From positions 34,232-98,231 of the forward strand of contig JAKSCG010000237.1 of the NCBI GenBank assembly GCA_022360715.1: a DNA stretch of 64,000 bases. The letters run 5' to 3'. The notes beneath the pieces are model-generated. The model was not told where the DNA came from, did not search any database, and saw only the letters and a program-made list of their open reading frames with translations. The first letter of the stretch is position 1; each line of letters opens with the position of its first letter. Source of the DNA: Halanaerobiales bacterium. GTDB taxonomy: Bacteria; Bacillota; Halanaerobiia; Halanaerobiales; DTU029. This document shows, piece after piece, positions 1,764-38,602 of this stretch. A program made the translations under genes and the position numbers.

Positions 1764-1798
1764 GCTCATCCCTCCTTATAAAGAACGGTTTTCTCTCC

Positions 1799-4039: not shown

Positions 4040-4088
4040 TGTAAAATCCCTCCTAGTTTAGTTTAAATGGTTAATCTTGTCCGCCCAG

Positions 4089-4925: not shown

Positions 4926-4954
4926 ACTTAAAACCCCCTTTTATTTATTGTAAA

Positions 4955-7691: not shown

Positions 7692-7721
7692 CTTCTTGTA
7701 TCTCCCCCTTTCCTGATCTTT

Positions 7722-13744: not shown

Positions 13745-14650
13745 TTACCAAAAGCTGTGCAGCCACCTTAAGACCGGCGTCAAGTCGAGCTGATCGGCCA
13801 GTCTTTTGAGCTGGGGAATTTTACTGTATTTATCCATCCCGATCGGATCATGCAAGAGCGGATTTAAACGATAATACCTTTTTCCCAAAAGGTAGTCTGT
13901 AACCAGGTAATCAGTTTGAGCGGCACTACTGAAGAGCAAAGAAACCAATGGCATTGGAGGGTCTGCCCCAAAATACCATTGCCAGGCACCCCAGTCAGCT
14001 GTATTACCTTGAATCCTTTTCGGTAGATAGCCGGTACCCAGTGAAATTAAGCTCATTTTCGGTAAACCTTCCCGTCCCGATAGTCTGGAAAGGGCATAAG
14101 CCAGGGCAACTGTACTTGGATTATTGGCTACTACTGCCCCATCAATATAGTTTTGATGGGAGGGAAAAAAGATTGGGGCCGCACAACTGGCTAAAGCAAC
14201 ATCGATGACCCGGGCATCTTGATCATCAGTATCTGATAAATTACTAAAAAAAACGGGACCCCAGCTGTTCCTATTTTCAGGGCATGCCTTAACTTTAAAA
14301 GCAGGAATCAACACATTATATTCGAGATCTTTTAATTTAAGATTTAACGGGAAAACAAGTTCCAGCACTTTCTGCAATCTTTCCAGACTATAGCGCGGTT
14401 GAGTTAAACCCCTGCTTTGCCGCTTAAAGATATACCGGCAAAGTTCTACCGAATAAAGTTGATCTAACCATTCGATCTCAATCCCGGCGGCCAGTCCCAG
14501 CGCAATAAGGGAACCGGTTGAGGTACCGGCAAACATGTTAACCTGCTTTAATAAATTGGGAGTATTCTCGCTTAATCGGCTTAAAACTCTGGCTGTTAAT
14601 GCCCCACGAACCCCTCCTCCATCAAAGGTCATTATTCGGCATCCATCCAT
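13745..14650 (-). CDS. Patatin-like phospholipase
   Basis: FDGGGVRG oxyanion motif, GTSTGS (GxSxG nucleophile elbow) and DGAVVANNP (catalytic Asp). GGAGTG lies 7 nt upstream of the ATG. Confidence 0.85.
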   Translation of the reverse strand: MDGCRIMTFDGGGVRGALTARVLSRLSENTPNLLKQVNMFAGTSTGSLIALGLAAGIEIEWLDQLYSVELCRYIFKRQSRGLTQPRYSLERLQKVLELVFPLNLKLKDLEYNVLIPAFKVKACPENRNSWGPVFFSNLSDTDDQDARVIDVALASCAAPIFFPSHQNYIDGAVVANNPSTVALAYALSRLSGREGLPKMSLISLGTGYLPKRIQGNTADWGAWQWYFGADPPMPLVSLLFSSAAQTDYLVTDYLLGKRYYRLNPLLHDPIGMDKYSKIPQLKRLADQLDLTPVLRWLHSFW

Positions 14651-14772: not shown

Positions 14773-16965
14773 CTAAAAACTAATACTAACACCGGCTTGG
14801 GCCGTGCTAACTTGATAGTCTTGCGCTTTATTTATATTACCAGCTGTGTCTTTTAATTCCAATAATTGATAATTGGCCTTGAAGTCAACTCCGTCAGTAA
14901 TCGTATAGACTAGCCCTGCTTGATTGGTGTTGTATTTACCCTGATCAGCAGTAGTACCCTCTACTTCTTTATAGGTATAGTCATAATTAAACTTAGCTGC
15001 TCCTAAGCTGTAACCAACACCAAGGTTATACTCCGTCGTCTCTTCATCCTCATCTTCGCCAATATCTTCAAAGGCAAATCCGGCCCTGATCACTAAATCG
15101 TTAAATACAGGATAATCAACTACCTTTACTCCATAGTCGATCGTTACTACGTCTTTACCGGCAATATAGTCATCATCAGTTACGTTTTCATACCCGGCCT
15201 CTGCTGTTATATATTCATTTGCTGCATATTTTACCCCAAATTCCAGGGTTGTTTCCTCTTTTCCGGTTTCTACCGGGTCTTTAACCGCGTATTCACCGGT
15301 TACGGTCAAGTCTTCAGTTAAAAGTGGCATCATACCGGTCAGCGCCAACTTAGTTGTTTCATCTTCTCCTTTTTCTACTTGAGCATAGAATAAACTGGCT
15401 TCCAGTAAATCAGTTATCTGCTCACTTACCTTGAAGTTCCAGCCGGTCATATCGGCTTGACCCAGCCCGGTGGTAAACTGATCATAGTCATCATCATCAG
15501 CATCAAATATTAGATCATTTTCACTAATTGGCTTAAAGTATTCGTCCCGGTTCTTGTAATTGAACTCAAGAGCAGCAAATGGTAAGCTGGTAATTGCTCC
15601 CAAGCGAATCAATGAACCGTTATCAGCTCCGTCCACTTCAGGGACGGAATGAGCAAAATCAAGATAGGCGTCTATTTGGCCCAACTGAGCATTGAGGTCA
15701 ATCCCTAATAAATTATGGTTCATATCTTCAACTTTAACTACCGTTCCACATTCACCGGTAAAGAATTCATTCCGGGCTCGCCGACTGCTAATGTTTACCC
15801 CAAAATCCAGGCCTTCTAACCCAAATCTCTTCCTGGCCCCCATCACATAAAAGTCATCACTATCTTCGACCAGATCTAGGTAAGCACCAGTTGTCGGATC
15901 ATAGTCCTCATAAACGTCGTGTCCATTATCTAAATCTTTAGTTCCGGCAACATCGTAATCGATCATCCCAAAAAAGGTCTCTAAGCCAAGTTTTTTCCAG
16001 TCAACTACTATCCCATTAATTTCAGCCTGACTATAGGCATAGTCAGCTATGTCTACGACGTTTTCTTCGTTATAGACTGCTTTTAAAGCCTCATTTTCCA
16101 TAACTAATTCAGCCTGATCCAAAATCAAGACATCTTCAACATCATCTTTTTCGTGCACATCCAGTTTGACAACGGCAGTTAAGCCATTAGCAACTATATT
16201 TGCCTGCAAGTCCAGAGTCTGTTCTACTTTTCCATCTGTTTTGTCATAGTCAATTTCGATCTTTTTGGAGTCGTCATCCCAGGGATCAGAATAAAGATAA
16301 GAGTCGTCCCGGTCTCCTTCTCCCAGGTCATATTCACCGTCATCGTCAGTATCAATGTATTCTTCTTGGATCAGCCTTCCTTCGATCTCTTGGTCGGTCA
16401 ACTCTACATTGTATTTCCCGCTAAAGCTAACTACCGGAGCAACCTTTTCTAATGCAGTGACTCGTGCTTCCACCGCATCTACATCGGCATAGATACCATC
16501 GATTTTCTGGTCGAGTATCTTTAACTCTGCTTTAAATTCAAAGGTTAAAGCCTCAATCAAGTTAACCACTTCTTCTACCTGCTGTTCACTTAAGTTTTTG
16601 GATCCTCCGCTTGCCGGTGGTTGGTTTTTGGCTAAAAGAGCTTTGACAATTGCCGTTACATCCTCTGCCTGTGCTTTGCTTAAATTGTTAGCGACATCGT
16701 CGATCTCCTCAGCGAGCATTTTCCGTTCCATCTCGATCTTGTCCAGGATCCGGCTTACTATGATCGCAATCTCATAGCGGGTCAGGTTGTTTTTCCCCTT
16801 AAAACTTCCGTCGGGATAACCCTCAGCGATACCGGATGCCACCAACTTGTTTACGGCCCGATAGGCCCAGTGGTTAGCCGGCACATCAGTAAAAGGCCCG
16901 GCAAAAGAAGTTGTGGTGACAAAGATCATCAATAAAAAAACCAGTAAAAAACTATATTTTTTCAT
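14773..16965 (-). CDS. ompM: OmpM-type porin/OM tether: SLH domain + coiled coil + beta-barrel (copy 1)
   Basis: Signal peptide. SLH motif FTDVPANHWAYRAVNKLVASGIAEGYPDGSFKGKNNLTRYEIA. A heptad-rich segment (residues ~80-180). An acidic insert. A ~480-aa amphipathic-strand barrel ending ...AGVSISF. This architecture defines OmpM/Mep45 of diderm Firmicutes. Confidence 0.85.
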   Translation of the reverse strand: MKKYSFLLVFLLMIFVTTTSFAGPFTDVPANHWAYRAVNKLVASGIAEGYPDGSFKGKNNLTRYEIAIIVSRILDKIEMERKMLAEEIDDVANNLSKAQAEDVTAIVKALLAKNQPPASGGSKNLSEQQVEEVVNLIEALTFEFKAELKILDQKIDGIYADVDAVEARVTALEKVAPVVSFSGKYNVELTDQEIEGRLIQEEYIDTDDDGEYDLGEGDRDDSYLYSDPWDDDSKKIEIDYDKTDGKVEQTLDLQANIVANGLTAVVKLDVHEKDDVEDVLILDQAELVMENEALKAVYNEENVVDIADYAYSQAEINGIVVDWKKLGLETFFGMIDYDVAGTKDLDNGHDVYEDYDPTTGAYLDLVEDSDDFYVMGARKRFGLEGLDFGVNISSRRARNEFFTGECGTVVKVEDMNHNLLGIDLNAQLGQIDAYLDFAHSVPEVDGADNGSLIRLGAITSLPFAALEFNYKNRDEYFKPISENDLIFDADDDDYDQFTTGLGQADMTGWNFKVSEQITDLLEASLFYAQVEKGEDETTKLALTGMMPLLTEDLTVTGEYAVKDPVETGKEETTLEFGVKYAANEYITAEAGYENVTDDDYIAGKDVVTIDYGVKVVDYPVFNDLVIRAGFAFEDIGEDEDEETTEYNLGVGYSLGAAKFNYDYTYKEVEGTTADQGKYNTNQAGLVYTITDGVDFKANYQLLELKDTAGNINKAQDYQVSTAQAGVSISF

Positions 16966-17366: not shown

Positions 17367-17608
17367 GCTGTTATTATATAGACCGTTCGTTCTTTTTCCG
17401 ATAAAAAAATGTCTCGGTGAGTTCGGCAGATTTATATCGAACATTCTTTCTATTGCTTTAAATTATATCACCACTAATTTTCTCTGTCAAGTCACTGAAA
17501 ATATTTTTATTTGACTCCGTTTGCGGAATCTCTGATTCTTGTCGATTGAACTTGACAAGTGTTATCTAAACTGATATTATATTGATTAGGTTATAGACCG
17601 AATGTTCT
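17341..17608. promoter_or_regulatory. Four copies of a 14-bp near-palindromic operator motif (AGAACRTTCKGTCT) in the ompM1/tetR divergent region
   Basis: Written on the minus strand: 17354..17341 AGAACGTTCGATAA; 17393..17380 AGAACGAACGGTCT; 17447..17434 AGAATGTTCGATAT; 17608..17595 AGAACATTCGGTCT. The last lies at about +9..+22 of the tetR promoter. Confidence 0.55.
17552..17580 (+). promoter_or_regulatory. SigmaA promoter of the TetR-family gene
   Basis: TTGACA (17552..17557), a 17-nt spacer and TATTAT (17575..17580), with TG at -15/-14 (extended -10). Confidence 0.7.
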
Positions 17609-17628
17609 ATTAAAGGGTGGGCCGAATT

Positions 17629-18258
17629 ATGAATACAGATAAAAATAAAATCAGTACCAAAGACAGAATCTTAGCGGTTTCAGAAAATCTTTTTGCCGAA
17701 AAAGGCTTTGATAGTACCGGCATTGATGAAATAGCCAGTAATGTCGGCATTGCCAAATCCGTGATCTATTATCATTTTAAGAATAAAGAGGACATTCTGA
17801 AGACGCTGTTTGAAAAATATTTGGGACAGGGTTTTGAGTTAAAAAAAGATAAAATAGATGAAATAGTTATTAATGATAATGTTAATTATAAGAAAATTTT
17901 TAGTGAAACGCTGAATCGTGCCGAATTATGGAGGAATTTTTCCAGGATATTGTTTATGGAATCAATGAAAAAAACTGATCCTGAAAACAACTTATTATTC
18001 AAGCTTTGGGAAAGGAATATGGAATTCCTTTATGTTGTATACAAAGATAAATTAAATGATCAAGCTATAAGCAAAAAAAAGGAATTATTAACTAAATCAT
18101 TCTTTATGTTGGGATTGCCCTGGATTGGTTTTCAGGTCTTTGTTGCTAGCTGGTCTGAATTCGTAGACATAGAAGAAGAGGAATTAAACAAAATGCTCAC
18201 TGAAATAATGGATGAGTTTCTGGAAAAAATATGGTTGGAGAAATTGTTTAATTTATAA
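17629..18258 (+). CDS. TetR/AcrR-family transcriptional regulator
   Basis: Track ORF starts at GTG 17617. ATG 17629 has AAGGGTGG 8 nt upstream. N-terminal HTH: ILAVSENLFAEKGFDSTGIDEIASNVGIAKSVIYYHFKNKEDIL. Confidence 0.85.
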   Translation: MNTDKNKISTKDRILAVSENLFAEKGFDSTGIDEIASNVGIAKSVIYYHFKNKEDILKTLFEKYLGQGFELKKDKIDEIVINDNVNYKKIFSETLNRAELWRNFSRILFMESMKKTDPENNLLFKLWERNMEFLYVVYKDKLNDQAISKKKELLTKSFFMLGLPWIGFQVFVASWSEFVDIEEEELNKMLTEIMDEFLEKIWLEKLFNL

Positions 18259-18315
18259 CCAATAAGATCGCTATTTCAATATATATTAATACTACATGAT
18301 TTTTGGGATGGTTAT

Positions 18316-18362
18316 AGACAGAACGCTCTGTTTATTTATTTGCTTTCTAGACAGAATGTTCG
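18316..18362. promoter_or_regulatory. Two further copies of the same operator motif upstream of the MMPL/RND gene
   Basis: On the plus strand: 18316..18329 AGACAGAACGCTCT and 18349..18362 AGACAGAATGTTCG. Both match the reverse complement of AGAACRTTCKGTCT and lie ~100-140 nt upstream of the ATG at 18459. Confidence 0.5.
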
Positions 18363-18458
18363 GCATACGAAGGGAGGTCTGAGCGATATGTAATAAAGAT
18401 ATAAAAAAATTATCTAATCTATTCAATCCCGGTCAAAAAAAATTAAGGAGGGACTCAA

Positions 18459-20939
18459 ATGAAAAGCAATAAACTAAAAGAAAAGATTGCTTCTTTCGGT
18501 ATGAATGTAATTATTAAGCGTAGATACCTCTTTCTTCTTCTCTTGCTTGTACTTGTGGTGATATGTGCAGTCGGTGCTCAGAAAGTTAGGCTTAACAGTA
18601 ATGATGAGGCTTTCTTTCCGGAAGATAGTCCTACATTAAAAAAATATGATCGATTTAAGGAGATCTTCGGTAGCGAGGAGTACATTTTTATCCTTGTTGA
18701 GAGTGAGCAAATTTTTAACTATGATGTTTTAAAATATATCGACGACTTAAGTCAGGACATCAACGAAAACTTGCCTTTTGTAAAGAAAGTAACTTCTTTA
18801 ACCAACATTGAGTATCTTCAAGCAACAGATAATAATTTAATTATTGAGGATTTATTTAAAGGGGGAATTCCCAAGGACCCGGAAAAACTTAATCAAGTTA
18901 AAGATAAAGTTTTAGCCAAGAAATCTTATGTCGGAAGTATAATAACCGCCGATGCAAAGAGCACGGGAATAATTGTTCAAATTAAAGCTCTCCCTGACTC
19001 GGTTTATGCCGCTGTTCCCGAGAATTTTACTCCCATTCAGCAGGAAAACTGGCCGCCGGAAAAAATACTGATGAAATCAGATCTATATACTAATCCTGCT
19101 GCCCAAGCGGGACTTAATCAAGTACTTGATCCCCGCAAATTGATCACACCGGCTCTAAGGGTTATTCTCAATCGGCAACCGGAAGAAAATGTTAAAGTAT
19201 ATGCTACCGGAACGCCCATTATCAACTATGAGCCGGATCTAGTCGCTGCTCAGGAGGGCGGAAAGTTTGGTGTAATCGCTTTATTAGCTGCGGTTATCCT
19301 GATGTTCCTCCTATTTAGAAGTTTTAGAGCTATCCTGGGGCCATTTATCGTAATCCTGTTTACCATGATTATGTTGTTTGGCCTGCTAGGCTGGTTAAAC
19401 CTAGAATTATCAATGCTGATTATTATTATTCCAACACTAATTCTGGTTATCTCGGTCAGTTATTCCATCCATGTAATCAATCATTTTCTTTACGCCTTTA
19501 ATCAAACAGGGTCCAGAGCAGCAGCGATTAAATATGCCTATCAAGAATCAACCTGGCCGATCTTGATCACTGCGGTTACCACAGCTTTAGGATTCCTGTC
19601 ATTTGTAGTACTCCCGATGCCTCCAATTAAAGTAATTGGGATTAGTTGTGCTTTAGGTGTCTTTATTGCTTATCTGCTTGTGATGACTATTATTCCGATT
19701 ATTTTTTCGATCGGCAAAGATCGGACTAATAAAAAAGGGGAAAAAATCAAACAGGCCAAGAAGGAATCCTTTCGCGATAAAATGGTTAGCTGGTCAAATT
19801 TTGTTGCTAATAATGTTAAATTTACGGTATTGCTCACAGTTATATTAGTACTGGTTTTAATTGGTTTTTCCTTCAAGATGCAAGTTGACCCGGATATATT
19901 GGAAATGATCGGTGATGATATAAAATTTGTTAGAGATACCAAATATATTACCGAGCGACTGGGTTCTCCCTATTCTTATGAGATATTGATTGAACTCCCG
20001 GAAGAAGAAATGGCAAAAAATAGTGCAATTCTGCAGGAAGTAGATCGGATGAGCGATTTAATAAACAACTGGGAAACTACATCCAACATAACATCACTTA
20101 CAAATATTATTAAAGATTTGAACTTGACAATGAATAATAATAATGAGGGATATTATACTATACCGGATTCAGAGCAATTAATCTCGCAGTATCTACTGTT
20201 ATATGAAATGTCAGGGGGAGAAGGTTTAGAAGAGTGGGTTAACTTTTCTTATGACAAAATGCGTGTTTCTGTTCAGGTTAATGAGTTTAAGGAGCGGCTA
20301 AACAATGACTTCGAAAAAATAAGTGCTTATGCCGATCAGCATTTCCCGGCCGGCACAAAAGTAACAGTCGTCGGAAACATTCCGATCTCCCTGCAGGTAA
20401 TGGAGTATATCTCGCAGGGGCAGATAACCTCGATACTATTGGCGCTATTGGTTATAACGATTATTATGATTATTGTGCTAAAATCACTGAAACTAGGCTT
20501 ACTTTCGATGCTGCCTAATGTTATACCAATACTAACAATTATCGGTTTGATGGGTATGGTCGGGATTCCACTCAATTTATTTACCCTAATAATCGCTCCG
20601 ATGATCCTGGGAATTGCCGTTGATGATACCGTTCACTATTTTGTTCACTTCAAGGAAGAATTTATGGAAGCCAAATCCTATTCAAAAGCCAATAGAGAAA
20701 CCTTTAAAAAAATCGGCCCTGCTTTAATCTTCACATCAGTTATCTTAATGATTGGTTACGGGATATTCAGTGTATCAAAAATGCAGGCTTTTGCCCATGT
20801 AGCAATACTCTCTACTGCCGGCATCTTTATTGCCTTAGTGGCCGATATGTTCCTCACACCGGCTATTATTATGTACCTTAAACCCTTTGGCCGGCCGGTA
20901 AAGATAACTGAAAAGGAGAATGCCTCCTATGAGAACTAG
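18459..20939 (+). CDS. RND-superfamily exporter, MMPL/HpnN-like (COG1033 type)
   Basis: 826 aa. One N-terminal TM, a large soluble loop, a 5-6 TM bundle (residues ~265-420), a second large loop and a second TM bundle (~650-810). This is the 12-TM pseudo-duplicated RND/MMPL layout. AAGGAGGG lies 7 nt upstream of the ATG. Confidence 0.75.
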   Translation: MKSNKLKEKIASFGMNVIIKRRYLFLLLLLVLVVICAVGAQKVRLNSNDEAFFPEDSPTLKKYDRFKEIFGSEEYIFILVESEQIFNYDVLKYIDDLSQDINENLPFVKKVTSLTNIEYLQATDNNLIIEDLFKGGIPKDPEKLNQVKDKVLAKKSYVGSIITADAKSTGIIVQIKALPDSVYAAVPENFTPIQQENWPPEKILMKSDLYTNPAAQAGLNQVLDPRKLITPALRVILNRQPEENVKVYATGTPIINYEPDLVAAQEGGKFGVIALLAAVILMFLLFRSFRAILGPFIVILFTMIMLFGLLGWLNLELSMLIIIIPTLILVISVSYSIHVINHFLYAFNQTGSRAAAIKYAYQESTWPILITAVTTALGFLSFVVLPMPPIKVIGISCALGVFIAYLLVMTIIPIIFSIGKDRTNKKGEKIKQAKKESFRDKMVSWSNFVANNVKFTVLLTVILVLVLIGFSFKMQVDPDILEMIGDDIKFVRDTKYITERLGSPYSYEILIELPEEEMAKNSAILQEVDRMSDLINNWETTSNITSLTNIIKDLNLTMNNNNEGYYTIPDSEQLISQYLLLYEMSGGEGLEEWVNFSYDKMRVSVQVNEFKERLNNDFEKISAYADQHFPAGTKVTVVGNIPISLQVMEYISQGQITSILLALLVITIIMIIVLKSLKLGLLSMLPNVIPILTIIGLMGMVGIPLNLFTLIIAPMILGIAVDDTVHYFVHFKEEFMEAKSYSKANRETFKKIGPALIFTSVILMIGYGIFSVSKMQAFAHVAILSTAGIFIALVADMFLTPAIIMYLKPFGRPVKITEKENASYEN

Positions 20940-21723
20940 AAAAATATTTATTATCTTTTTTTTATTGATGTTTTCCGTAAATGCTCAGGTATTAGCTGGG
21001 GAAGGGTTAACCGGCAGAGAGATTATTGAAAAAATGGAAACAGTAACTTCAGTAAAAGATATGCAGGCAGAAATGGTAATGAGAATTATCCATCGATCAG
21101 GTAAGGAACGGATCAGGGAGTTGAAAACAGCATCAAGTGAGAATGATGCCGGAGTGGAAAAATCACTTATCCGCTTTCTATCCCCGGCTGATGTACGCGG
21201 TACCGGTTTTCTCAGTATAGACAGACCGAACGGGGCCGATGAACAATACCTTTATCTGCCGGCCCTCGGCAAACCCCGTCGACTTTCCTCCGAAGAGCGA
21301 GGCGGAAGCTTTATGGGTTCTGATTTAAGCTATGAAGACCTTTCTCCCACCATCGATGATTATACCTATACATTGATTAGTACGGAAGAAATAGGTGGTA
21401 AAGAAGTATATGTTGTTGAATCACAACCTGTCTCAGCTAAGGTAAGATCAGATGTCGGGTTTGCCCAAAAGATTTACTGGATTAGAAAGGATATAATGAC
21501 CCTGATTAAGGCTGAGTTTGCGGACAGCTCCGGGACAGTGATTAAGTTAATGGAGGTCTCGCAAATTAAACAGATCGAGGGGAAGTTCTGGCTGGGAACT
21601 AAAATTGACATAAAGGATTTAGAGGATGGTTCAAGGACTGTCTTAGAATATAGAAATATTGAGATCAATAGCGGATTGACTGATAATTATTTTACGATCA
21701 GACAGCTAACCCGCCCGCTATAA
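20929..21723 (+). CDS. LolA-like 'outer membrane lipoprotein-sorting' family protein (copy 1)
   Basis: Track ORF starts at 20920. ATG 20929 is better spaced from AAGGAGA. Signal peptide (...NAQVLA|GE). The central motif QYLYLPALGKPRRLS...GGSFMGSDLSYEDL parallels ...LWMFFPEAEDVVKIS...NQSMMGSDFSYQDM in the 32744..33496 product. I recognise this as the LolA_like family that typically accompanies COG1033 and FtsX-type transporters. Confidence 0.6.
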   Translation: MRTRKIFIIFFLLMFSVNAQVLAGEGLTGREIIEKMETVTSVKDMQAEMVMRIIHRSGKERIRELKTASSENDAGVEKSLIRFLSPADVRGTGFLSIDRPNGADEQYLYLPALGKPRRLSSEERGGSFMGSDLSYEDLSPTIDDYTYTLISTEEIGGKEVYVVESQPVSAKVRSDVGFAQKIYWIRKDIMTLIKAEFADSSGTVIKLMEVSQIKQIEGKFWLGTKIDIKDLEDGSRTVLEYRNIEINSGLTDNYFTIRQLTRPL

Positions 21724-21735
21724 GGAGGAAAGAAA

Positions 21736-22890
21736 ATGCCAAAAAAAATGATCTTAATATTGACCGTCACAATTCTAATCTTAGCCTTCCCGACAATGAA
21801 AGTTGGAGCAGGAGATCTAACCATAGAGGGAGAGTTGACCTCCAGACTGGAGGGTAGTTTGTCCGAAAGCGAGCTTCTCCTGTTAAGTAATCACCTAAAA
21901 CTGAATCTTAACCACTATAGACCAGAGGCCGGGCTGACCACAGCTACCCTCGAAATTTCAGATCAGCGGGGGACTAAACTATCTTTAAAAGAGGCCTATG
22001 TCGAACTATATTATGCGGCAACGGATTTAACGATCGGTAAGCAACGGATCGCCTGGGGTAAAGCCGATGGAATTAATCCGACCGATAACTTTAATCCCCA
22101 AGACCAAACACAACCCTTTGCTGATGACAACAAGCTCAGGGTGCCGGCAGTCCGGGCCAGACATTATTCCGGTGATTGGATATTTGATCTGGTCTGGGTC
22201 CCCGCCTTTACCTCTCCCGTTTTTGCCGCACCGGGAGAACGCTGGTCAGTATTACCATCTGGTAGAATAAAGCCCGTATATCCAGAGGATAAATTGAAGC
22301 ATTCCGAGTATGGGGTTAGGGCCTCTAGATGGACCCCGGCAGTGGATTTTTCGGTCAGTTATTTCAATGGATATAGTAAAGATCCGGCCTTTCCTCCCGA
22401 TCCTAAAAGGGACGGAGGAGATTATATTTGGCAACCTGAATTTTACCGGGTTAATGTCCTGGGTGGAGACTTTTCCAAAGACTTCGGCAGTTTTGTACTG
22501 CGGGGAGAAGGGGCTTATTTTAAGCCGGAGGAAAACTTCCAATTGAAAAACCCATCTTACCAGTGCGTGCTGGGAGTGGACTTCAACCTGATCAATCAAC
22601 TATATATAAATACTCAATACTATCGAGAGCAGGAAGCAGAGCGGGAAGCAATCAATATGATAACCGGCTCGGCCCAATATGAGGTCACCCCTTTTCAATC
22701 CTTTGAACTAAATGGGTCTTATGGGCTAGACCATCAGGATTATGTTTTAAACCCCGTCTATATAGTCGATGTAGTCGACGGCCTATCTCTCTCCCTCGGT
22801 CTTTACTTTTTTGCGGGAGATGAGGGGACTCTGTTCGGTAGTTTTGCGGAAAAGGATTATTACTATCTTCAGCTAAATAAATCTTTTTAA
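21736..22890 (+). CDS. Putative outer-membrane beta-barrel protein (DUF1302-like; copy 1)
   Basis: Signal peptide. LTIGKQRIAWGKADGINPTDNFNP motif, shared as LTVGRQPISWSFGSMLNPVDYS with the 31631..32728 product. Alternating amphipathic strands. C-terminus ...YLQLNKSF. Confidence 0.55.
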   Translation: MPKKMILILTVTILILAFPTMKVGAGDLTIEGELTSRLEGSLSESELLLLSNHLKLNLNHYRPEAGLTTATLEISDQRGTKLSLKEAYVELYYAATDLTIGKQRIAWGKADGINPTDNFNPQDQTQPFADDNKLRVPAVRARHYSGDWIFDLVWVPAFTSPVFAAPGERWSVLPSGRIKPVYPEDKLKHSEYGVRASRWTPAVDFSVSYFNGYSKDPAFPPDPKRDGGDYIWQPEFYRVNVLGGDFSKDFGSFVLRGEGAYFKPEENFQLKNPSYQCVLGVDFNLINQLYINTQYYREQEAEREAINMITGSAQYEVTPFQSFELNGSYGLDHQDYVLNPVYIVDVVDGLSLSLGLYFFAGDEGTLFGSFAEKDYYYLQLNKSF

Positions 22891-31572: not shown

Positions 31573-31608
31573 AAAAAAAGCACTATGAAAAAAACGCTTC
31601 CATAGTGC
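31573..31608 (-). terminator. Terminator closing the GbsR/ArsA/ABC/LolA-like/OMP gene string
   Basis: The minus strand reads GCACUAUG-(13-nt loop)-CAUAGUGC followed by U7. The arms are at 31601..31608 and 31580..31587, about 22 nt after the stop at 31631. Confidence 0.6.
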
Positions 31609-31630
31609 CGATAGTGCTTAAAGATTATAT

Positions 31631-32728
31631 TTAAAAAGAATAACTTAAGGCTGTCTCTATCCCCCCAATCCTTTTTTCATCTGCACTGGCTAATATTTTA
31701 TCTGGGTCTCCCAGTTGGTAAAACCCACTCAAGTTTAGACTTAAATTACTCCCCAGGTCGACCTGATAACTGGGTTGAAGAACCATACTGCCATCGTCCA
31801 AACTGCTGATTACGGTAAAATTTAGAGCCGAAAAATCATCAAGGGGATAGTTAATATTTCCAATCAAAAAGTTAAGGTATTCTCCGGCCGGTATTACTCC
31901 GCTCAACAATTCCCCTTTTTCCAAAACCAGGTATTCCAGCTGGGCGGTAATCAATTGATCATAGTGATAGGTATAGCTATAATCACCGCCTAAAAGTAGG
32001 ACTAGATTACCCTGTTCCCTTTGATCCCAATGATAGTAGCCCAAGGCACTATAAACTCCCAATGGGCCGAGATCCCCCTTGGCTGTTAGCCCGGCTCTGG
32101 TACAGGTCAGTACTTCTCCGGCAACCTGATCGGTCGCATGATTCATTAAGCCGTTTAGTTCGGTCAGATTAATTGCCGGTTCACGGATCAAGCTGGCAGT
32201 CAGGTCATAACCTTTATATCCGGCCCGACCCCTGATCCCCCATTTAATTTTACCTGTTCCACTAAAATTGGAAGCAACCAACGCTAAATTGGAGTTCCAG
32301 TTTAGTGGAACGTAAAGGGCCACCGCATCCTGATATTTCCCGATAGTTTCTTGCTTGATCGCTTCTGCTCCCAGGCTGTAATCAACCGGGTTGAGCATTG
32401 AGCCAAAAGACCATGAGATCGGCTGGCGCCCCACCGTTAAATAAAATTGATCAAACTTTCGCTTTAAATATAGTTTCTGAAAGCTGATTCTCTCCCCGTT
32501 CAACAGCTCCGGATTATAAATCTTCAATTCCACTTTAGCATCGGTATCCCCAAACCTTGGGATTAATAATTCCAGCTGCAAGGTTTCCTGAAGCAGACTC
32601 TTAATCTCTCCTTGATAAATAGTACTGATCAGGTTAGCTTTAATCTCCCCTCCTATTTCGACCTGGGCGGAGACCGGAAGTACTATTAACAGAATTAAGA
32701 GTATTAGGCAAAAGATTTTTTGTGACAT
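31631..32728 (-). CDS. Putative outer-membrane beta-barrel protein (DUF1302-like; copy 2)
   Basis: Signal peptide (...PVSA|QVE). LTVGRQPISWSFGSMLNPVDYS motif. Amphipathic strands. Ends ...ETALSYSF. Paralog of the 21736..22890 product. Confidence 0.55.
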   Translation of the reverse strand: MSQKIFCLILLILLIVLPVSAQVEIGGEIKANLISTIYQGEIKSLLQETLQLELLIPRFGDTDAKVELKIYNPELLNGERISFQKLYLKRKFDQFYLTVGRQPISWSFGSMLNPVDYSLGAEAIKQETIGKYQDAVALYVPLNWNSNLALVASNFSGTGKIKWGIRGRAGYKGYDLTASLIREPAINLTELNGLMNHATDQVAGEVLTCTRAGLTAKGDLGPLGVYSALGYYHWDQREQGNLVLLLGGDYSYTYHYDQLITAQLEYLVLEKGELLSGVIPAGEYLNFLIGNINYPLDDFSALNFTVISSLDDGSMVLQPSYQVDLGSNLSLNLSGFYQLGDPDKILASADEKRIGGIETALSYSF

Positions 32729-32743
32729 AGCAATTCCCCCTCT

Positions 32744-33496
32744 TTATGACTGTAAACTCTCCAGGGTAAAGACCCCTTCCGCTATTTCCGGGTTAAACTC
32801 AATTGATAAGAGCTTAAACTCGGTCCGGGTATTTTCCCGCAGTTTATTCTCCATGACTGATTCGATTGGTATCCAGCGTTGATCGATCTGTTCAATCTTA
32901 TTGACCATACTTACCTTTAACAGACGGCCACTCCGGGCATATAGTTCTTCCTTTAATCCGACAAACCGCTCTTGATCAACCCAGATTACCCGGCGGTAAT
33001 ATGATACTTCTTTCCCTTCCCGGGCAATTCCTTCTAAGACATAACAGAGCCTCCCGTCTAATTCCTCTTCCTGTAGTATTTTAAATTGGTACAACTCGGT
33101 CAACTGATCTGATTCCATCATGTCCTGGTATGAGAAATCGCTGCCCATCATTGACTGATTGAGCATATGCCCGGAGATTTTTACTACATCCTCTGCTTCC
33201 GGGAAGAACATCCAGAGATCTTCCCCCCGTTTTAAGAACTTGGTACCCCGGTCCCGGGGATTAGTGAATTCGGTCAGGGCATTTTGATCATCACTGAGTG
33301 AACGCAAAGTCTTGGTCATCTTTCTCCCACCATTAACAATAATCATCTCTGCTTCGATTCTGGCTGAAATAATATATTCATTTTTATCCCGATAATTAAT
33401 TATTTCTTCCGCGGTAATTGCCGTTACTATCCCGGATAACCCAGTAATCAACAGTAAACTCAACAGCAAAATACCAACAATTGTGTTCTTTTTCAT
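32744..33496 (-). CDS. LolA-like 'outer membrane lipoprotein-sorting' family protein (copy 2)
   Basis: Signal peptide. Paralog of the 20929..21723 product with shared GSDxSYxD core and overall length. Confidence 0.6.
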   Translation of the reverse strand: MKKNTIVGILLLSLLLITGLSGIVTAITAEEIINYRDKNEYIISARIEAEMIIVNGGRKMTKTLRSLSDDQNALTEFTNPRDRGTKFLKRGEDLWMFFPEAEDVVKISGHMLNQSMMGSDFSYQDMMESDQLTELYQFKILQEEELDGRLCYVLEGIAREGKEVSYYRRVIWVDQERFVGLKEELYARSGRLLKVSMVNKIEQIDQRWIPIESVMENKLRENTRTEFKLLSIEFNPEIAEGVFTLESLQS

Positions 33497-33526
33497 GCTT
33501 AATCCCCTTTCAATATGTTTTTCAAG

Positions 33527-34783
33527 CTACAGATCCCGCAAAGCCTCGGACGGTTCCAGTCTCGCCGCCCGGCGAGCCGGAAAAATACAGGCAATAGCCG
33601 TAACTACTACCCCCAGAATAAAGGCAAAAACCATGTGGTCGACCGAAAAACTGGGGAAAATAATCGGGTCAATTAAAAATCCTTCCATACCGGACATCGC
33701 TTGACTATAATCAATCCCATGGACTGATAAAAAGCGGGTAATCATCCCCCCGAACAATGAACCAAGCAGACTGCCGATTATTCCCATTACCGCACCTTCC
33801 ATCACAATAAGTTTCAGGATATCTCTGCCCTGCAACCCGAGGGCGGCCATCATACCGATCTCCTGCGTCCTCTCTTTAACAATCATCACCATCGTATTAA
33901 TGACCACTATGCTGGAAAGGAGTACCAGGAAAATGTAAATTAAGTCATAGATCTTGAGGGCAAGATCCATATAGGCCAAAAACTCATTGGCTTCCTGCCA
34001 GGTCAGGACAGAATACCGGCTGAGGGCATTCTTTGCGCTAAATAGTCGTTCGACCGCCGGGAAAAAAACATCGGCCTGGTTAGCATTAGGTGTAATCAAT
34101 AATAACTCGGTAACCTGGTCGGGCATTTCCAATAAATGCTGGGCCAGGTCGAGCGGCAGGAAAAAAATTCGCTCATTGATTAGGGGCAGATTACTGCTAA
34201 TCACCCCGACAATTCTAAAAGTAACTCCTTTAAAGGAATTAAAGGAATCAGTATATAAAAGGGTTACTTTATCCCCCACCCTTTTGTTCAGCTTCTCCAT
34301 TAAACCGTTACCCAACACTATTTCTTTTTCCCCATTTTGAATCATTCTTCCGGCCACCAGTTTCTCTTCTATTTTGGTAAATCTGTCTTCAAGCACTGGG
34401 TCAACCCCCCAGCCCAGCATGGTTATCGCCTCGTGCTCAGTACTGGCCATTGCCCCAAATTTAATGCGGGGAACCACCAGCTCGATCCCTTCCAGCTCAG
34501 TTAGCTGGTCAGTCATTACCGCAACTCCCTCCCCGTTAAAACCATCAACCGGATAGTTTAAAGAAAGAAGGCGTTGCTTCAAACGGTACTCTTGATTGAC
34601 TATTTTAATATGCCCTGTTTCGTATTGGATATAGAGGGAAAAGGTTGAGTCGATAAAGCCCATTAGTAGCCCTCTGGTAAAGACAATCACCGCTACTGAG
34701 ATTGCAATGGCAATGATTGATACTATTGACCTTAATCGGTTGCGCAATAAATTCTTGGCCGCTAAATTCCATAAAAAGATCAT
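33527..34783 (-). CDS. FtsX/MacB/LolC-type ABC transporter permease
   Basis: N-terminal TM (NLLRNRLRS...), a ~230-aa periplasmic domain and three C-terminal TMs (FtsX domain), ending PARRAARLEPSEALRDL. Confidence 0.8.
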   Translation of the reverse strand: MIFLWNLAAKNLLRNRLRSIVSIIAIAISVAVIVFTRGLLMGFIDSTFSLYIQYETGHIKIVNQEYRLKQRLLSLNYPVDGFNGEGVAVMTDQLTELEGIELVVPRIKFGAMASTEHEAITMLGWGVDPVLEDRFTKIEEKLVAGRMIQNGEKEIVLGNGLMEKLNKRVGDKVTLLYTDSFNSFKGVTFRIVGVISSNLPLINERIFFLPLDLAQHLLEMPDQVTELLLITPNANQADVFFPAVERLFSAKNALSRYSVLTWQEANEFLAYMDLALKIYDLIYIFLVLLSSIVVINTMVMIVKERTQEIGMMAALGLQGRDILKLIVMEGAVMGIIGSLLGSLFGGMITRFLSVHGIDYSQAMSGMEGFLIDPIIFPSFSVDHMVFAFILGVVVTAIACIFPARRAARLEPSEALRDL

Positions 34784-34798
34784 CAGACCCCCTCCTTT

Positions 34799-36043
34799 TT
34801 AACGGTGATAGATTGCCTTAACCGGGTCTTTCCCGGCGGCCCAGCGGGCCGGCAGTATACTTGCTAAAACAGCCACCACCACCCCAAAGAGCGCAATAAA
34901 CAAAAATGCCCCCGGATTCCAACCACCATATATTTTATCAATAATCGGAATACCGATATCGATCTCCCCCATGCCGAAAGCACTGAGGGCAATACCGAAT
35001 CGATTAAAGAAGGCTACGCTCACCCCGCCCAGGAAACAACCAATTAAACTACCGATCACGCCAATCCCCAGTGCTTCTATCATAAAAGCCAGGATAATCT
35101 CCCCTTCTTTTAAGCCCAGGGCCTTCATCATCCCTATTTCTTCTGTCCGTTCGATCGCCGAAAGAATAGTGGTATTAATGATTCCCACCGCAGCAATCAG
35201 AATAATAATCCCCAGAATAATTATATTTTCAATCTGAGATGCTTCCATCATCGCCAAAATTGATTGGGCTGATGCCTGCCAGGGATAAGCCCTTAAATCA
35301 GGATTAATTTTTGCTACCTTTTCGGTCAGCTGTCTGGCCGCAGTTGGCATTTCCCCTTGGTCTCCCCTAAACCGGATCACCAGCTGACTGACTTCATCAC
35401 CCAGATTGAGTGATTGCTGGGCGAGATCCAAGGGGACAAAAACAATATTATTATTGACATTGGGATTGGGGGTACTAATTAAACCGCTAATCTCCACATC
35501 AATTGTATTAAAAGTCCTTTCTCGGCTTCTAACCAACAAAGTTAAGTAATCTCCGACCTTCAGATCCATCAATTCCGCCAAACTCTGACCGAGGACCGCC
35601 TTCTCCTCCCCGGCTTTAAAGAACGAACCCTTGACAAAGTAATCACCGGTAGTAAAGACCTGATGATAGGTATTCGGCTCAATCCCCAGACCTAGCACCG
35701 GTAGTTCTTCAACCCCGTTGTTTAAATTGGCGTTGAACCTAAGTAACGGCGACATGCCCTGCAAGTTAGCCAGAGCTTTGATCTCTTCTGCCAGTTGGCC
35801 GTCTTTAACGAGCAGTTGGTCAAGCGGGTTCTTATCCTTCTCCTCCCAGTATTGCTCGGTCATCACCTGGAGATGCCCGGTCTCCAGATTAATGATGTTT
35901 TGATAAGACAACTCGGCAATCCCGATCATGATTGAATCAGTAACCAGATAAATTAAAATTGCCAGTGAGATTATAATCGCCGTAATTAGCGTCCTCTTTT
36001 TATGACGAAAGACATTCCTGAACCCCAGTTTAGCTATAAACAC
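34799..36043 (-). CDS. FtsX/MacB/LolE-type ABC transporter permease
   Basis: Track ORF runs to 36094, which would overlap the ATPase gene by 65 nt. GTG at 36043 has GGGGGAG 7 nt upstream and gives [18 protein letters not shown]..., the usual FtsX N-terminus. Same topology as its neighbour. Ends PARWAAGKDPVKAIYHR. Confidence 0.8.
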   Translation of the reverse strand: MFIAKLGFRNVFRHKKRTLITAIIISLAILIYLVTDSIMIGIAELSYQNIINLETGHLQVMTEQYWEEKDKNPLDQLLVKDGQLAEEIKALANLQGMSPLLRFNANLNNGVEELPVLGLGIEPNTYHQVFTTGDYFVKGSFFKAGEEKAVLGQSLAELMDLKVGDYLTLLVRSRERTFNTIDVEISGLISTPNPNVNNNIVFVPLDLAQQSLNLGDEVSQLVIRFRGDQGEMPTAARQLTEKVAKINPDLRAYPWQASAQSILAMMEASQIENIIILGIIILIAAVGIINTTILSAIERTEEIGMMKALGLKEGEIILAFMIEALGIGVIGSLIGCFLGGVSVAFFNRFGIALSAFGMGEIDIGIPIIDKIYGGWNPGAFLFIALFGVVVAVLASILPARWAAGKDPVKAIYHR

Positions 36044-36740
36044 CGGCTTTCTCCCCCTTTTGATCAATCGAGACCTCTCCGTCCCTGATCTCAATTAATC
36101 TGCTCGCATATTCCATAACCTGGGGGTCATGGGTGGAAAAAATAAATGTTGTCTTCAACTGCTGGTTCATCTTAACCATAATCTCCAGGATCTCAATGCT
36201 GGTTTTGGAGTCCAGATTGGCCGTAGGTTCATCGGCCAGGATCAATTTCGGTTCTTTGACCAAGGCCCGGGCAATGGCTACTCTCTGCTTCTGTCCCCCC
36301 GATAATTCGTTGGGCCGTCGGTTTTCCAGCCCTTCCAGTCCCACTGCTGCCAAAATATTTAGGACTATTTGCCGCCGTTCTTTGTCATTACGGTTATTGA
36401 CCAAGCGGACAGCAAACTCGACATTCTCAAAAGCAGTCAGCACAGGAATCAAATTATAGCTCTGGAAGACAAAGCCGATATTATACCGTCGGATTAAGGC
36501 CAACTCTTTTTTTGAAATACCGCCCAACTCCCGCTGATCAAAAGTAATTTGACCTGCTGTCGGCTTATCCAGACAGCCGATCATATTAAGGAGGGTCGTC
36601 TTCCCTGATCCTGACGGACCAAAGATAGTTGTAAATTCACCTGTTTCCACCGTCAGGTCAATTCCTTTTAAAGCAGGTACTTCTATTTTACCCTGCTGAT
36701 AAATCTTTTCTACACCTTTAAGTTCAATTAAGGTCATCAT
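36030..36740 (-). CDS. ABC transporter ATP-binding protein (MacB/LolD type)
   Basis: Walker [10 protein letters not shown], signature [15 protein letters not shown], Walker B LILADEPT. Confidence 0.9.
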
Positions 36741-36823: not shown

Positions 36824-37981
36824 CTAAAAGGATAGATGTAGATACGAGTCCCGGTATTGAGCCTTCTTAATCGACTTATTGCTCAGGAGCTGAGGTAAAT
36901 GTAGTTTCTGTTTATAATCACCAATAGTAACAATTAAAATTCCTCCCTTTTGGTGCAGTCTAAACTTATCCCGCTGCAAAAAGGGGAGATACACCCGATA
37001 ATGATAACCGTCCCCTTCCTTCTCAACCGCCAAGGGAATTCCCCCGAAAAAGCTATCCAACGGATCTTCTTGCTGATATAGTAATCTGGAAACCGGTTTA
37101 AGGTTGTCAAGGCCCTTTAGTTCTTCACAAATTAAGGGTAAGGTAAAGACCCGTTGGGAGGAAAAAATCTTTTCAATTCTGGTCAGATTACTCCGCTGTC
37201 TGGCCAAGATCCGGTTATAAAAGTCGCTGTTGGCCTCAGGCAAAAATAATTTATTAACAATGATGCAATCGACCTTAAAGCCATATAAACTCAAATAAGT
37301 ATAAGCCCGTTGAGATTCATTAATGACCATCTCTTCCGGATTGAGCACCAATCTAACCGATGTTATTTCCGGATTAGTTAGTATTCCCTTGACCTCTTCC
37401 ATTTTCTGATAGATCTCCTCAATCGCTGTAAAAACATCTTCCTCGGGCAGGGGCAGTTCCATAAAACTATTACTAAAAGTCCGTAAAAACTTAATACTTT
37501 TCTTTTTAATTTTGAAAAATTTTTCCATATACCAACCAATTATATCAAAAAAACTAAGGAGACGAATCGCCGAAGCCGTTGGGGGAAAATCCATGATTAA
37601 AACATCATATCCCTTTTTTTTAAACTGTTCATGGATTTCCAATAAACTAAAAAGCTCCTCGACTCCCGGAAACATTGTTAATTCCTCTGCAAAAATATCT
37701 TTAATTCCCATCATCTTCAATAGATCAACTAAATACTGATAGATTTGCGCCCAGTGGTTTTCCAACTGGTGCTGGGGATTTAACTCCATACCATCCAGAT
37801 TTTTCAGGATAGTGGTCGGTTGATAATTTAAATCTACCCCCAATGAATCAGAAAGGCTGTGGGCCAGATCAGTACTAACCACCAGGGTCTTGATCCCTTT
37901 TCCCGCCAATTTAATCCCGGTAGCAGCCGCAATACTGGTTTTTCCAACTCCACCCTTCCCGGTATAAATAAGTATTCTCAT
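36824..37981 (-). CDS. ArsA/Get3-family P-loop ATPase with C-terminal HSP20-like domain
   Basis: ATG 37981 overlaps the upstream stop (ATGA). Deviant Walker A GKGGVGKTS. VVSTDLAHSLSD. The switch II region DFPPTASAIRLL lacks the canonical DTAPTGHT His. The C-terminal ~70 aa (DGYHYRVYLPFLQRDKFRLHQKGGILIVTIGDYKQKLHLP) resemble the ArsA_HSP20 domain. Confidence 0.75.
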   Translation of the reverse strand: MRILIYTGKGGVGKTSIAAATGIKLAGKGIKTLVVSTDLAHSLSDSLGVDLNYQPTTILKNLDGMELNPQHQLENHWAQIYQYLVDLLKMMGIKDIFAEELTMFPGVEELFSLLEIHEQFKKKGYDVLIMDFPPTASAIRLLSFFDIIGWYMEKFFKIKKKSIKFLRTFSNSFMELPLPEEDVFTAIEEIYQKMEEVKGILTNPEITSVRLVLNPEEMVINESQRAYTYLSLYGFKVDCIIVNKLFLPEANSDFYNRILARQRSNLTRIEKIFSSQRVFTLPLICEELKGLDNLKPVSRLLYQQEDPLDSFFGGIPLAVEKEGDGYHYRVYLPFLQRDKFRLHQKGGILIVTIGDYKQKLHLPQLLSNKSIKKAQYRDSYLHLSF

Positions 37982-38541
37982 CCTTCCACACCCCAATCCA
38001 CTGAAATTTCTTTTAATTGCTGGGGGAAAGGCCCACTGTCCAACTCTTTATCCAACAGGAAATAAATCCACTTTTCCCCTAGTTGGATGATCCGGATTAA
38101 TTCCTCAATCTTCTTTAAATCTCCTTCAATCAGCTGCTTTACCTCCTGACTGCTCCGGGACATAAGGTCTTGATAAGATTTAGTCGCCGGAACAATCGCC
38201 TCTTTAATCAGCCGGATTTGATTTAATTCCTTACTCTTTAATGCTTCTTGAAAAATTTTGTTAAAATCCCTTTCTGCTAAATAATAGTCTTTGCGGCTCC
38301 CCTTCATCCATATTTTCTGGACCATCTTTAATTTTAGCAGCAAACGAATATTAATACTGACCGTAGCCTTACTAACACCAAGTTTTTCCGCGATCTCATC
38401 CAGACATAAAGGGTTATCCTCAAAATACAACAGACCATAAATATAACCGATCGTTCGATTCATCCCGTAAGTATCAAGTGTTTGCCCCAGGGCTTCAATA
38501 ATAATTCTTCTAATCCCGTCGATCTCCTGATAACCTGTCAT
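37978..38541 (-). CDS. GbsR/COG1510-type MarR-like transcriptional regulator
   Basis: ATG 38541 has GGGGAGGGGG 4 nt upstream (track start is 38565). The wHTH NRTIGYIYGLLYFEDNPLCLDEIAEKLGVSKATVSINIRLLLKLKMVQKIWMKGSRKDYYLAERDF matches the GbsR-type pattern. Confidence 0.7.
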   Translation of the reverse strand: MTGYQEIDGIRRIIIEALGQTLDTYGMNRTIGYIYGLLYFEDNPLCLDEIAEKLGVSKATVSINIRLLLKLKMVQKIWMKGSRKDYYLAERDFNKIFQEALKSKELNQIRLIKEAIVPATKSYQDLMSRSSQEVKQLIEGDLKKIEELIRIIQLGEKWIYFLLDKELDSGPFPQQLKEISVDWGVEG

Positions 38542-38560
38542 CAAACCCCCTCCCCACTTT

Positions 38561-38602
38561 AACATTTAAAACATTTAATAAAAATTAAATGTTTTAAATG
38601 TT
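38561..38602. promoter_or_regulatory. Perfect 19+19-nt inverted repeat (candidate operator) at the predicted +1 of the GbsR-like gene
   Basis: AACATTTAAAACATTTAAT-aaaa-ATTAAATGTTTTAAATGTT. Each arm is itself two direct copies of AACATTTAA. It starts immediately downstream of the -10 box. Confidence 0.6.

Follow-up and report, generated by a model that had tools for sequence, protein, structure and literature searches.

The LolA homologs of Halanaerobiales have been reported in every genome of this lineage of diderm Firmicutes, beside two LolC/E permeases and LolD (Antunes 2016, PMC5007114). The same study reports Lnt in Halanaerobiales and no LolB, naming those LolA homologs as the only Lol candidates, and its supplement shows two LolA homologs for most of the genomes it presents, one of them with an accession consecutive to those of lolD, lolC/E and lolC/E. 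More recently, a 2024 review has treated the Lol-like genes of Halanaerobiales as a horizontal acquisition (PMC11784454). Here, a window of 64,000 nucleotides from a Halanaerobiales bacterium (assembly GCA_022360715.1, contig JAKSCG010000237.1, positions 34,232 to 98,231 of the forward strand) is described, which carries two paralogous three-layer cassettes, putatively for export, each encoding an inner-membrane engine, a LolA-like periplasmic carrier and a predicted outer-membrane barrel. Module 1 (17617-22890, plus strand) consists of a TetR gene, an MMPL/HAE3-type RND transporter, the LolA-like protein and the barrel, while module 2 (31631-36740, minus strand) consists of an ABC ATPase, two FtsX/MacB_PCD permeases, the LolA-like protein and the barrel. 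Since the gene order of module 2 and the consecutive accessions match, and the cassette is also found in a Halanaerobiales metagenome-assembled genome (MAG; locus L084), module 2 is very probably the cluster that Antunes 2016 proposed as the Halanaerobiales Lol system, in which the barrel went unmentioned.

The gene order and families of module 1, with TetR first, are those of PG1178-PG1181 from Porphyromonas gingivalis and of operons from Prevotella, whose hosts are Bacteroidota. Identities to the Prevotella nigrescens proteins are 30% for the MMPL protein (full length, 410 bits), 34% for the carrier and 27% for the barrel (E 2e-25). The Prevotella barrel is annotated as a 'DUF1302 family protein' and the carrier as an 'outer membrane lipoprotein-sorting protein', and the P. 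nigrescens carrier matches the structure of P. gingivalis LolA3 (PDB 9TP6), the solved carrier of this operon type, at E 5e-92. Unlike in module 1, TetR and MMPL are separated in the Prevotella operons by two additional fused ABC exporter genes; in P. gingivalis, the ABC genes lie in the wider PG1175-81 locus. In P. nigrescens (L166, 986-9960), two engines may thus feed one carrier and barrel pair, and this cassette is flanked by insertion sequence elements and integrase genes. The genes PG1178-81 form one transcription unit, which is induced 84-fold by nitric oxide (NO) stress and is among the most induced operons under hemin/iron limitation; Prevotella intermedia has three copies. The protein LolA3 exhibits a hydrophobic groove, lacks the Arg and Leu hallmarks of LolA and LolB, respectively, and shows weak or negligible binding to LolB (PMC13103446). 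Moreover, the deletion of lolA3 in Flavobacterium johnsoniae leaves gliding and the type IX secretion system unaffected (PMC11885536).

More distant relatives are AmeABCD and other proteobacterial clusters, which, in a layout similar to that of module 1, combine an HAE3 RND transporter, a periplasmic protein of the LolA superfamily and a DUF1302 barrel, and for which genetic data show that the parts cooperate and handle hydrophobic compounds. Deletion of AmeABCD lowers monoterpene tolerance and increases dye influx (PMC6394551), several species show cofitness of the DUF1302, DUF1329, BNR and RND genes (bioRxiv 10.1101/072470), and the DUF1302/DUF1329 mutants of Pseudomonas putida are unfit on Tween 20 and butyl stearate. 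An AlphaFold-Multimer model of the DUF1302-DUF1329 pair reaches an interface predicted template-modelling score (ipTM) of 0.84 (PMC13499233). The two types differ as follows: the carriers of the Ame-type clusters are DUF1329 proteins of ~450 amino acids (aa), in contrast to ~260 aa and PF17131 here, and their barrels have ~600 aa, in contrast to ~380 aa here, where the direct scan for DUF1302 fails. Ame-type clusters, whose RND gene belongs to COG1033, also contain BNR genes, whereas no BNR/COG4447-type gene is found in or beside either operon of the window, and no ABC-driven sister cassette such as module 2 has been described for them.

In Thalassolituus oleivorans, TOL_3187 holds MMPL and LolA-like parts in a single polypeptide, is followed by a porin-like gene without known domain, and is upregulated 42-fold on the n-C28 alkane (PMC6304351). 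Compared with module 1 by its published description, this 'Rosetta stone' fusion of proteins that are encoded here by split genes supports a direct cooperation between engine and carrier; no MMPL/LolA-like fusion open reading frame (ORF) appeared in the 58 genome loci examined, which leaves the published T. oleivorans protein as the single case.

Two classical systems offer partial parallels. Module 2 resembles the Lol pathway in its LolD-like ATPase, its two LolC/E-like permeases and its soluble carrier of LolA fold, and differs from it in that the equivalog models are missed, the carrier belongs to PF17131, a barrel is encoded in the operon and relatives are linked to TetR genes. No LolB-like gene is present in or next to either operon. 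As in AcrAB-TolC and MacAB-TolC, one accessory set is reused by RND and type VII ABC engines, and a local repressor of the TetR type is present; in those systems, however, the set consists of a membrane-fusion protein and TolC, instead of a LolA-fold protein and an 18-strand barrel.

Components of the two modules

All nine predicted genes of both modules were confirmed at or near their expected positions by ORF listing and profile searches. The gene maps drawn in an earlier note on this DNA are therefore confirmed by the ORF listing together with Pfam and NCBIfam, and its assignments to PF17131, MMPL and FtsX hold in the respective proteins under hidden Markov model searches. That note had also claimed that one kind of carrier and barrel pair works with two engines, a proton-driven RND and an ATP-driven one of the LolCDE/MacB type, and this coupling is supported. 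Inside each module the genes are spaced by -20 to +30 nt (overlaps or gaps of 12-30 nt), and the gaps between carrier and barrel genes measure 12-15 nt across both modules.

The first gene of module 1 encodes a TetR-family regulator (17617..18258, plus; PF00440, TetR_N, E 1.4e-15) of 213 aa from its GTG start, with an ATG at 17629. The inner-membrane transporter of the MMPL/HAE3-type RND class (18459..20939, plus; 826 aa) matches PF03176 in two stretches with 131 bits (cutoff 20.5). Its best NCBIfam model is HAE3 TIGR00921, at 250.5 bits and under the 351.9-bit cutoff, and its nearest solved structures are HpnN, in first place, and MmpL4. LolA-like periplasmic protein 1 (carrier 1; 20920..21723, plus; 267 aa; PF17131, E 1.2e-60) has a start that overlaps the MMPL stop by 20 nt, and the gene for barrel 1 (21736..22890, plus; 384 aa), assigned as an 18-strand outer-membrane beta-barrel from an AlphaFold2 model and the DUF1302 matches of its relatives, begins 12 nt past the carrier 1 gene.

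Just 5' of tetR, a promoter-like site close to the consensus (17538..17580, plus; TTGACA, 17 nt spacer, TATTAT, with TG) is overlapped at its -35 by the palindrome CTTGTCGATTGAACTTGACAAG (17538-17559; CTTGTC-N10-GACAAG), which makes this region a candidate for an autoregulated TetR operator and module 1 promoter. The spacer between tetR and the MMPL gene was also considered as operator and rejected, as the inverted-repeat search gave only an AT-rich palindrome there and the candidate upstream of tetR is better.

Module 2 begins with an ABC ATPase similar to LolD, DevA and the MacB nucleotide-binding domain (36030..36740, minus; 236 aa; PF00005, ABC_tran, E 1.2e-36). Its best NCBIfam models are LolD and DevA, and it scores 225 bits on LolD TIGR02211 (cutoff 308). 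According to Pfam and NCBIfam, permease a (34799..36094, minus) carries FtsX and MacB_PCD domains, and permease b (33527..34783, minus; 418 aa) carries FtsX and the MacB periplasmic core. Both permeases exceed the cutoffs for PF02687 and PF12704, which together with the PF00005 ATPase identifies the engine as a type VII ABC transporter; on lolCE TIGR02212 they score 128 and 139 bits (cutoff 362). The true start of permease a is probably near 36043 instead of 36094, giving 414 aa, since a protein of that length is called in a 97%-identical scaffold (L168). Among solved structures, permease b is nearest to LolF (7e-23), followed by LolE (1e-18), LolC (5e-10) and MacB (5e-4). LolA-like periplasmic protein 2 (carrier 2; 32744..33496, minus; 250 aa; PF17131, E 2.8e-59) and barrel 2 (31631..32728, minus; 365 aa; an outer-membrane beta-barrel by homology to barrel 1) complete the module. 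Directly after barrel 2, a strong terminator-like hairpin found by pattern match (31579..31609, minus; 13-bp stem, then a T run) marks the probable end of the operon.

Both carriers cover nearly the whole PF17131 profile (204.7 bits for carrier 1 and 200.3 bits for carrier 2, cutoff 30), beneath which DUF1329 appears as a far weaker, secondary partial match of 28.8 bits. Neither matches canonical LolA (PF03548) at E<=0.01, and no canonical LolA or LolB chain is found among their PDB matches, where the nearest solved structure is P. gingivalis LolA3 (9TP6, E 3e-37) for carrier 1, and 4Z48, 3BK5 and 9TP6 for carrier 2. The earlier proposal that the carriers are paralogs with a GSDxSYxD core stands, as they align pairwise at 26% identity (E 4e-21) and share MGSD(L/F)SY(E/Q)D. 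Both have a predicted cleavable signal peptide and lack a lipobox cysteine; carrier 1, which contains no Cys at all, is for this reason not a lipoprotein.

The barrels are less readily classified. Direct Pfam scanning of both at E<=10 gave no DUF1302 (PF06980) match, only a weak Wzi match for barrel 1, whereas barrel 2 matched no Pfam family at all. Searching the PDB with the barrel 1 sequence returned nothing. On the other hand, 52 of 63 homologs of barrel 1 match PF06980 (best 1.4e-17), which at the level of sequence families suggests that barrel 1 is a distant member of the DUF1302 superfamily. The description of the barrels as DUF1302-like thus failed in the direct scan and was recovered through the relatives of barrel 1. 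The AlphaFold2 model of barrel 1, built on the alignment of those 63 homologs after a single-sequence run had been discarded (predicted local distance difference test, pLDDT, of 30), reaches a pLDDT of 93 and a predicted template-modelling score (pTM) of 0.85, and displays 18 long strands, joined by turns of 2-4 residues on the periplasmic side and by longer loops outside. Its top Foldseek matches are AlgE (template-modelling score, TM, 0.57), OccK/OpdO (0.55-0.57) and porins, with overall TM of ~0.5-0.57. Since DUF1302 has been described as an 18-stranded barrel with the same structural neighbours, AlgE and the Occ channels (PMC13499233), the model of barrel 1, the one barrel modelled, has the AlgE/Occ-like 18-strand architecture of that family.

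Although pairwise BLAST between the two barrels is weak (E 2e-6), their family profiles align in hhalign over 350 columns with 99.5% probability (E 4.9e-23), so that the two sequence families are judged homologous over their full length. They have in common the motifs IGKQRIAWGKADGINPTD and VGRQPISWSFGSMLNPVD and a C-terminal Phe, in agreement with the paralogy and the Phe end claimed before; the common motif announced for them was also found, except that the spacing from W to NP is 6 residues and not 3. The invariant residues G101, Q103, W107, G108, D111, D117 and P121 of barrel 1 are located in the long loop L3. Both proteins carry a predicted cleavable signal peptide without lipobox cysteine. 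Because of the signal peptide, the C-terminal Phe, and the 18 strands and pLDDT of 93 of the barrel 1 model, they are predicted, as had been proposed, to be true outer-membrane barrels. The barrel 2 family is small, with 71 representatives at E<=1e-30 among 1.84 billion, and has no Pfam model. A protein of 3862 aa (P0378) matches positions 166-204 of the barrel 2 profile (39 positions) in 30 separate stretches, and looks like a repeat protein of that segment or a low-complexity artefact.

Linkage and distribution of the cassettes

Scanning a genome collection with the barrel 1 profile confirmed at least 588 related loci. Loci with at least 3.5 kb upstream of the barrel (n=49) were taken as informative. 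In 48 of the 49, the barrel gene follows an MMPL gene and a LolA-like gene, the exception having an alternative order. A metagenome scan with the barrel 2 profile yielded 209 loci, 28 of them informative (at least 5 kb upstream), and in all 28 the ATPase, two permeases and the carrier are located upstream of the barrel 2-type gene, while MMPL is found in none. A third permease is present in 17/28 of these ABC-cassette loci and TetR in at least 15/28; TetR also lies upstream of the cassette in the Halanaerobiales relative L084, and it often adjoins the MMPL cassettes too. Elsewhere, each engine type is near-invariantly linked to a carrier subfamily and a barrel subfamily of its own. Of the two carrier queries, LolA1 scores higher than LolA2 in every MMPL locus, whereas the matches in ABC loci are of LolA2 type, which indicates that the carrier subfamily is specific to each engine. 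As the order recurs in 48/49 and 28/28 loci from other organisms, the arrangement of the modules is real and far beyond chance.

The best 80 of the barrel 1 loci (out of at least 588) come from Calditrichota, Ignavibacteriota/Melioribacteraceae, Bacteroidota, Aminicenantes, Cloacimonadota, Marinimicrobia, KSB1, Atribacterota, Caldisericota, Spirochaetota and Proteobacteria, and the named sources of barrel 2 and carrier 2 homologs are Halanaerobiales, Atribacterota, Aerophobetes and unclassified Bacillota. Nearly every match to either barrel family or to carrier 2 belongs to a diderm lineage, a point on which the earlier note had called for a comparison with monoderm Firmicutes, and in a plasmid collection every named genus with a relative of carrier 2 is diderm. 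The idea that the modules are a special solution of diderm Firmicutes did not survive, given that module 1 occurs in Bacteroidota, Calditrichota, Ignavibacteriota, Aminicenantes, Atribacterota, Spirochaetota and Proteobacteria.

The only matches labelled classically monoderm are two contigs with barrel 1 cassettes, L020 (4.9 kb, 'Actinomycetota' MAG) and L058 (2.4 kb, 'Eubacteriales' MAG), which are short and for which mis-binning is plausible. Another unusual locus is an ABC-type cassette on pPP1, a Bacteroidota replicon of Persicobacter psychrovividus (L167, 3060-8681), with the order TetR, a 378-aa ORF, ABC, FtsX, FtsX and LolA-like. This ORF has no Pfam match, and its sequence GlQkIdfG...LrP resembles the L3 motif of the barrels, with an hhalign probability of only 14%.

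Conservation is uneven along the ABC cassettes. Carrier 2 shows 66-76% identity to its closest homologs, whose sources include Halanaerobiales, Atribacterota and unclassified Firmicutes MAGs, while the barrels of these loci show 41-49%. Every one of the best 120 carrier 2 homologs stems from a metagenome or a MAG, and none from a cultured Halanaerobium. Median values over the cassette loci are 67% for carrier 2, 69% for the ATPase, 51-52% for the permeases and 44% for the barrel. The high conservation of carrier 2 suggests either a recent transfer between phyla or an unusually strong constraint on the carrier.

Surroundings of the modules

The two modules are 8.7 kb apart and are bracketed by two SLH+porin (OmpM-like) genes of 730 and 733 aa (14773-16965 and 38697-40898, both minus), mutually 75% identical, so that the earlier placement of both modules between two ompM copies was right. 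Both OmpM-like proteins exceed the typical OmpM length by ~300 aa and have an extended acidic region in the middle. Between the modules are encoded an IclR regulator, an amidohydrolase, a TRAP transporter, RidA, a pyridoxal phosphate (PLP) enzyme and a flavoprotein, and no envelope-biogenesis gene is among them. A Pfam scan of 53 ORFs of the window with 120 aa or more, from which four smaller ones above this limit were left out, revealed neither a membrane-fusion protein of the HlyD family nor a TolC-type factor. Within the window, neither module has catabolic genes for hydrophobic substrates linked to it.

Upstream of module 2, an ArsA-type ATPase with an HSP20-like domain and an ArsR-like helix-turn-helix protein (36824..38565, minus) sit between a promoter-like site and the ABC gene (sites at 38637-38609 and 38672-38650), with no terminator-like site ahead of the latter, and judging from this layout they may be co-transcribed with the module. 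The pair is also present in L168, and at other loci TetR often occupies that position. It was rejected as a conserved part of the cassette, being specific to this lineage and absent from all cassette loci other than L168.

The TARA scaffold L168 carries both modules in the same arrangement at ~97% protein identity. The Lon of the window is 81% identical to that of the Halanaerobiales MAG with locus L084, where synteny is kept, the common order being SSB, S18, DUF2232, L9, Lon and then the ABC cassette. Elsewhere in the window, a patatin-like phospholipase gene (13745-14650, minus) lies immediately downstream of the first OmpM-like gene, and a phosphatase-rich block (678-10348, minus), with a type I phosphodiesterase, two Exo_endo_phos proteins, an alkaline phosphatase and a PHP protein, adjoins an ABC importer of the sugar type and is preceded by three ORFs (363, 746 and 278 aa) without Pfam match.

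Proposed function and significance

The reading that we prefer, and to which we give somewhat better than even chances, is that the cassettes export hydrophobic molecules, conditionally and each for a specific cargo, with carrier and barrel in place of the membrane-fusion protein and TolC. The engine, a proton-driven RND in module 1 and a LolCDE-like type VII ABC with two permeases and one ATPase in module 2, would act outwards and hand its hydrophobic cargo to the hydrophobic groove of the LolA-like protein. The outward direction is assumed because no other is known for RND pumps or for type VII ABC transporters (MacB/LolCDE type), which act as exporters or extractors. From there, the carrier would ferry the cargo to its cognate barrel, or bridge to it, and the barrel would insert the cargo into the outer membrane or pass it across. 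Candidate cargoes are a lipid, a pigment, a siderophore-like molecule or a toxic hydrophobic compound. Carrier and barrel may be regarded as an alternative accessory set because genes for a membrane-fusion protein or a TolC-type factor are missing from both operons, and the pair could plug onto different engines, just as membrane-fusion protein and TolC serve both AcrB and MacB.

A conditional and cargo-specific role is favoured over a housekeeping one because of the linkage to TetR and the inducibility of the P. gingivalis homolog by NO and iron limitation. The inducer of the TetR of module 1 is probably the cargo itself or one of its precursors. Similarly, a general role in lipoprotein transport is not favoured because LolA3 binds LolB weakly or negligibly and its deletion gives no phenotype linked to lipoproteins. 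Together, TetR control, the stress and iron induction of the homolog and the LolA3 data speak for induced export of a specific cargo rather than for a general part in lipid or lipoprotein biogenesis; the candidate lipid or lipoprotein conduits of the earlier note go further than this.

Several points weigh against cargo-specific export. The contacts of the carrier with barrel and engine are deduced solely from the linkage of the genes and by analogy with the related pair of DUF1302 and DUF1329. In the window, module 2 has no TetR, with ArsR-like and ArsA-like genes upstream instead, and the phenotypes of the relatives (growth on esters and alkanes, NO stress, iron limitation) do not converge on a single cargo. 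Finally, the permeases of module 2 are nearest to LolF and LolE among solved structures, their layout of one ATPase and two permeases is that of LolCDE, and Halanaerobiales have Lnt, with these LolA homologs as sole Lol candidates (PMC5007114).

These last features are in line with the main alternative, module 2 being the true Lol pathway of Halanaerobiales, in which LolCDE-like permeases would release triacylated lipoproteins to the LolA-like carrier and the barrel would replace LolB as acceptor or insertase, module 1 being a separate lipid or drug pump. The permeases have LolF, LolE and LolC as nearest structures, lolCE and LolD are the top NCBIfam models, the single ATPase and two permeases share the operon with a partner of the LolA superfamily, and Antunes 2016 ties these genes to Lnt and found no LolB. 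Furthermore, carrier 2 is conserved like the ATPase (median 67% versus 69%), as would be expected for a hub protein. We nevertheless consider this pathway unlikely. The equivalog scores are far under their cutoffs (lolCE 128-139 versus 362, LolD 225 versus 308), and the carrier belongs to PF17131 instead of LolA PF03548, the studied member LolA3 being without the Arg/Leu hallmarks and with weak or negligible LolB binding. In addition, TetR is located upstream in L084 and in at least 15/28 loci, which is unusual for an essential housekeeping pathway. A paralogous carrier and barrel pair serves an RND pump, and we know of no lipoprotein role for RND pumps. The closeness to the Atribacterota copies, for its part, suggests a mobile accessory cassette (PMC11784454).

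A broader proposal, which we hold to be equally doubtful, is that an engine, a PF17131 carrier and a DUF1302-type barrel constitute a third ancient modular class of trans-envelope systems beside membrane-fusion protein/TolC and Lpt/Lol, whose ABC version would deliver lipoproteins or bulk envelope lipid in Halanaerobiales and Atribacterota, with the barrel as a LolB-type acceptor.

The opposite direction of transport, in which the cassettes would take up or use hydrophobic nutrients (alkanes, fatty esters or heme) with the barrel as entry and the LolA-like protein as receiver, a role that has been put forward for some DUF1302/DUF1329 systems, appears quite improbable. It would explain why the homologous pair of T. 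oleivorans is 42-fold upregulated on n-C28, why the DUF1302/DUF1329 mutants of P. putida lose fitness on Tween 20 and butyl stearate, and why hemin limitation induces the P. gingivalis operon together with heme uptake genes. However, both engine classes are known only as outward-acting, the deletion of AmeABCD raised dye influx and cut tolerance, which is consistent with efflux, and no catabolic genes are linked to either module in the window. That the barrels are ordinary porins beside unrelated transporter operons with a coincidental resemblance, as the missing Pfam family of barrel 2, the weak Wzi match of barrel 1 and the general porins among the Foldseek matches might suggest, is highly implausible, because the linkage is conserved in 48/49 and 28/28 loci across many phyla with gaps here of 12-15 nt, the barrel subfamilies are engine-specific, and the homology of the barrels is with each other and with DUF1302 instead of OmpM or general porin families.

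Both cassettes are already present in databases and literature as annotated, uncharacterised units. In the literature searched, it was not found stated that the Halanaerobiales 'Lol' operon always ends in a barrel, that this barrel and the DUF1302-type barrel of the RND cassettes are homologous over their full length, or that PF17131 carriers define one modular architecture with two engine types. Proteins of PF17131 are annotated genome-wide as 'outer membrane lipoprotein-sorting protein', although the sole studied member, LolA3, behaves unlike LolA, and they are almost always paired with a dedicated DUF1302-type barrel and an RND or LolCDE-like ABC engine. Three uncharacterised families thereby become one jointly testable machine, with predicted contacts between carrier and barrel and between carrier and the periplasmic domain of the engine. 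Because P. gingivalis strongly induces its homolog under hemin/iron limitation and NO, it provides a tractable organism for finding the cargo. The only published Lol candidate of diderm Firmicutes calls for re-examination, given that a conserved barrel gene in its operon was overlooked, and, if the broader proposal of a third modular class were true, the reported 'Lol system' of these bacteria would be a barrel-terminated pathway.

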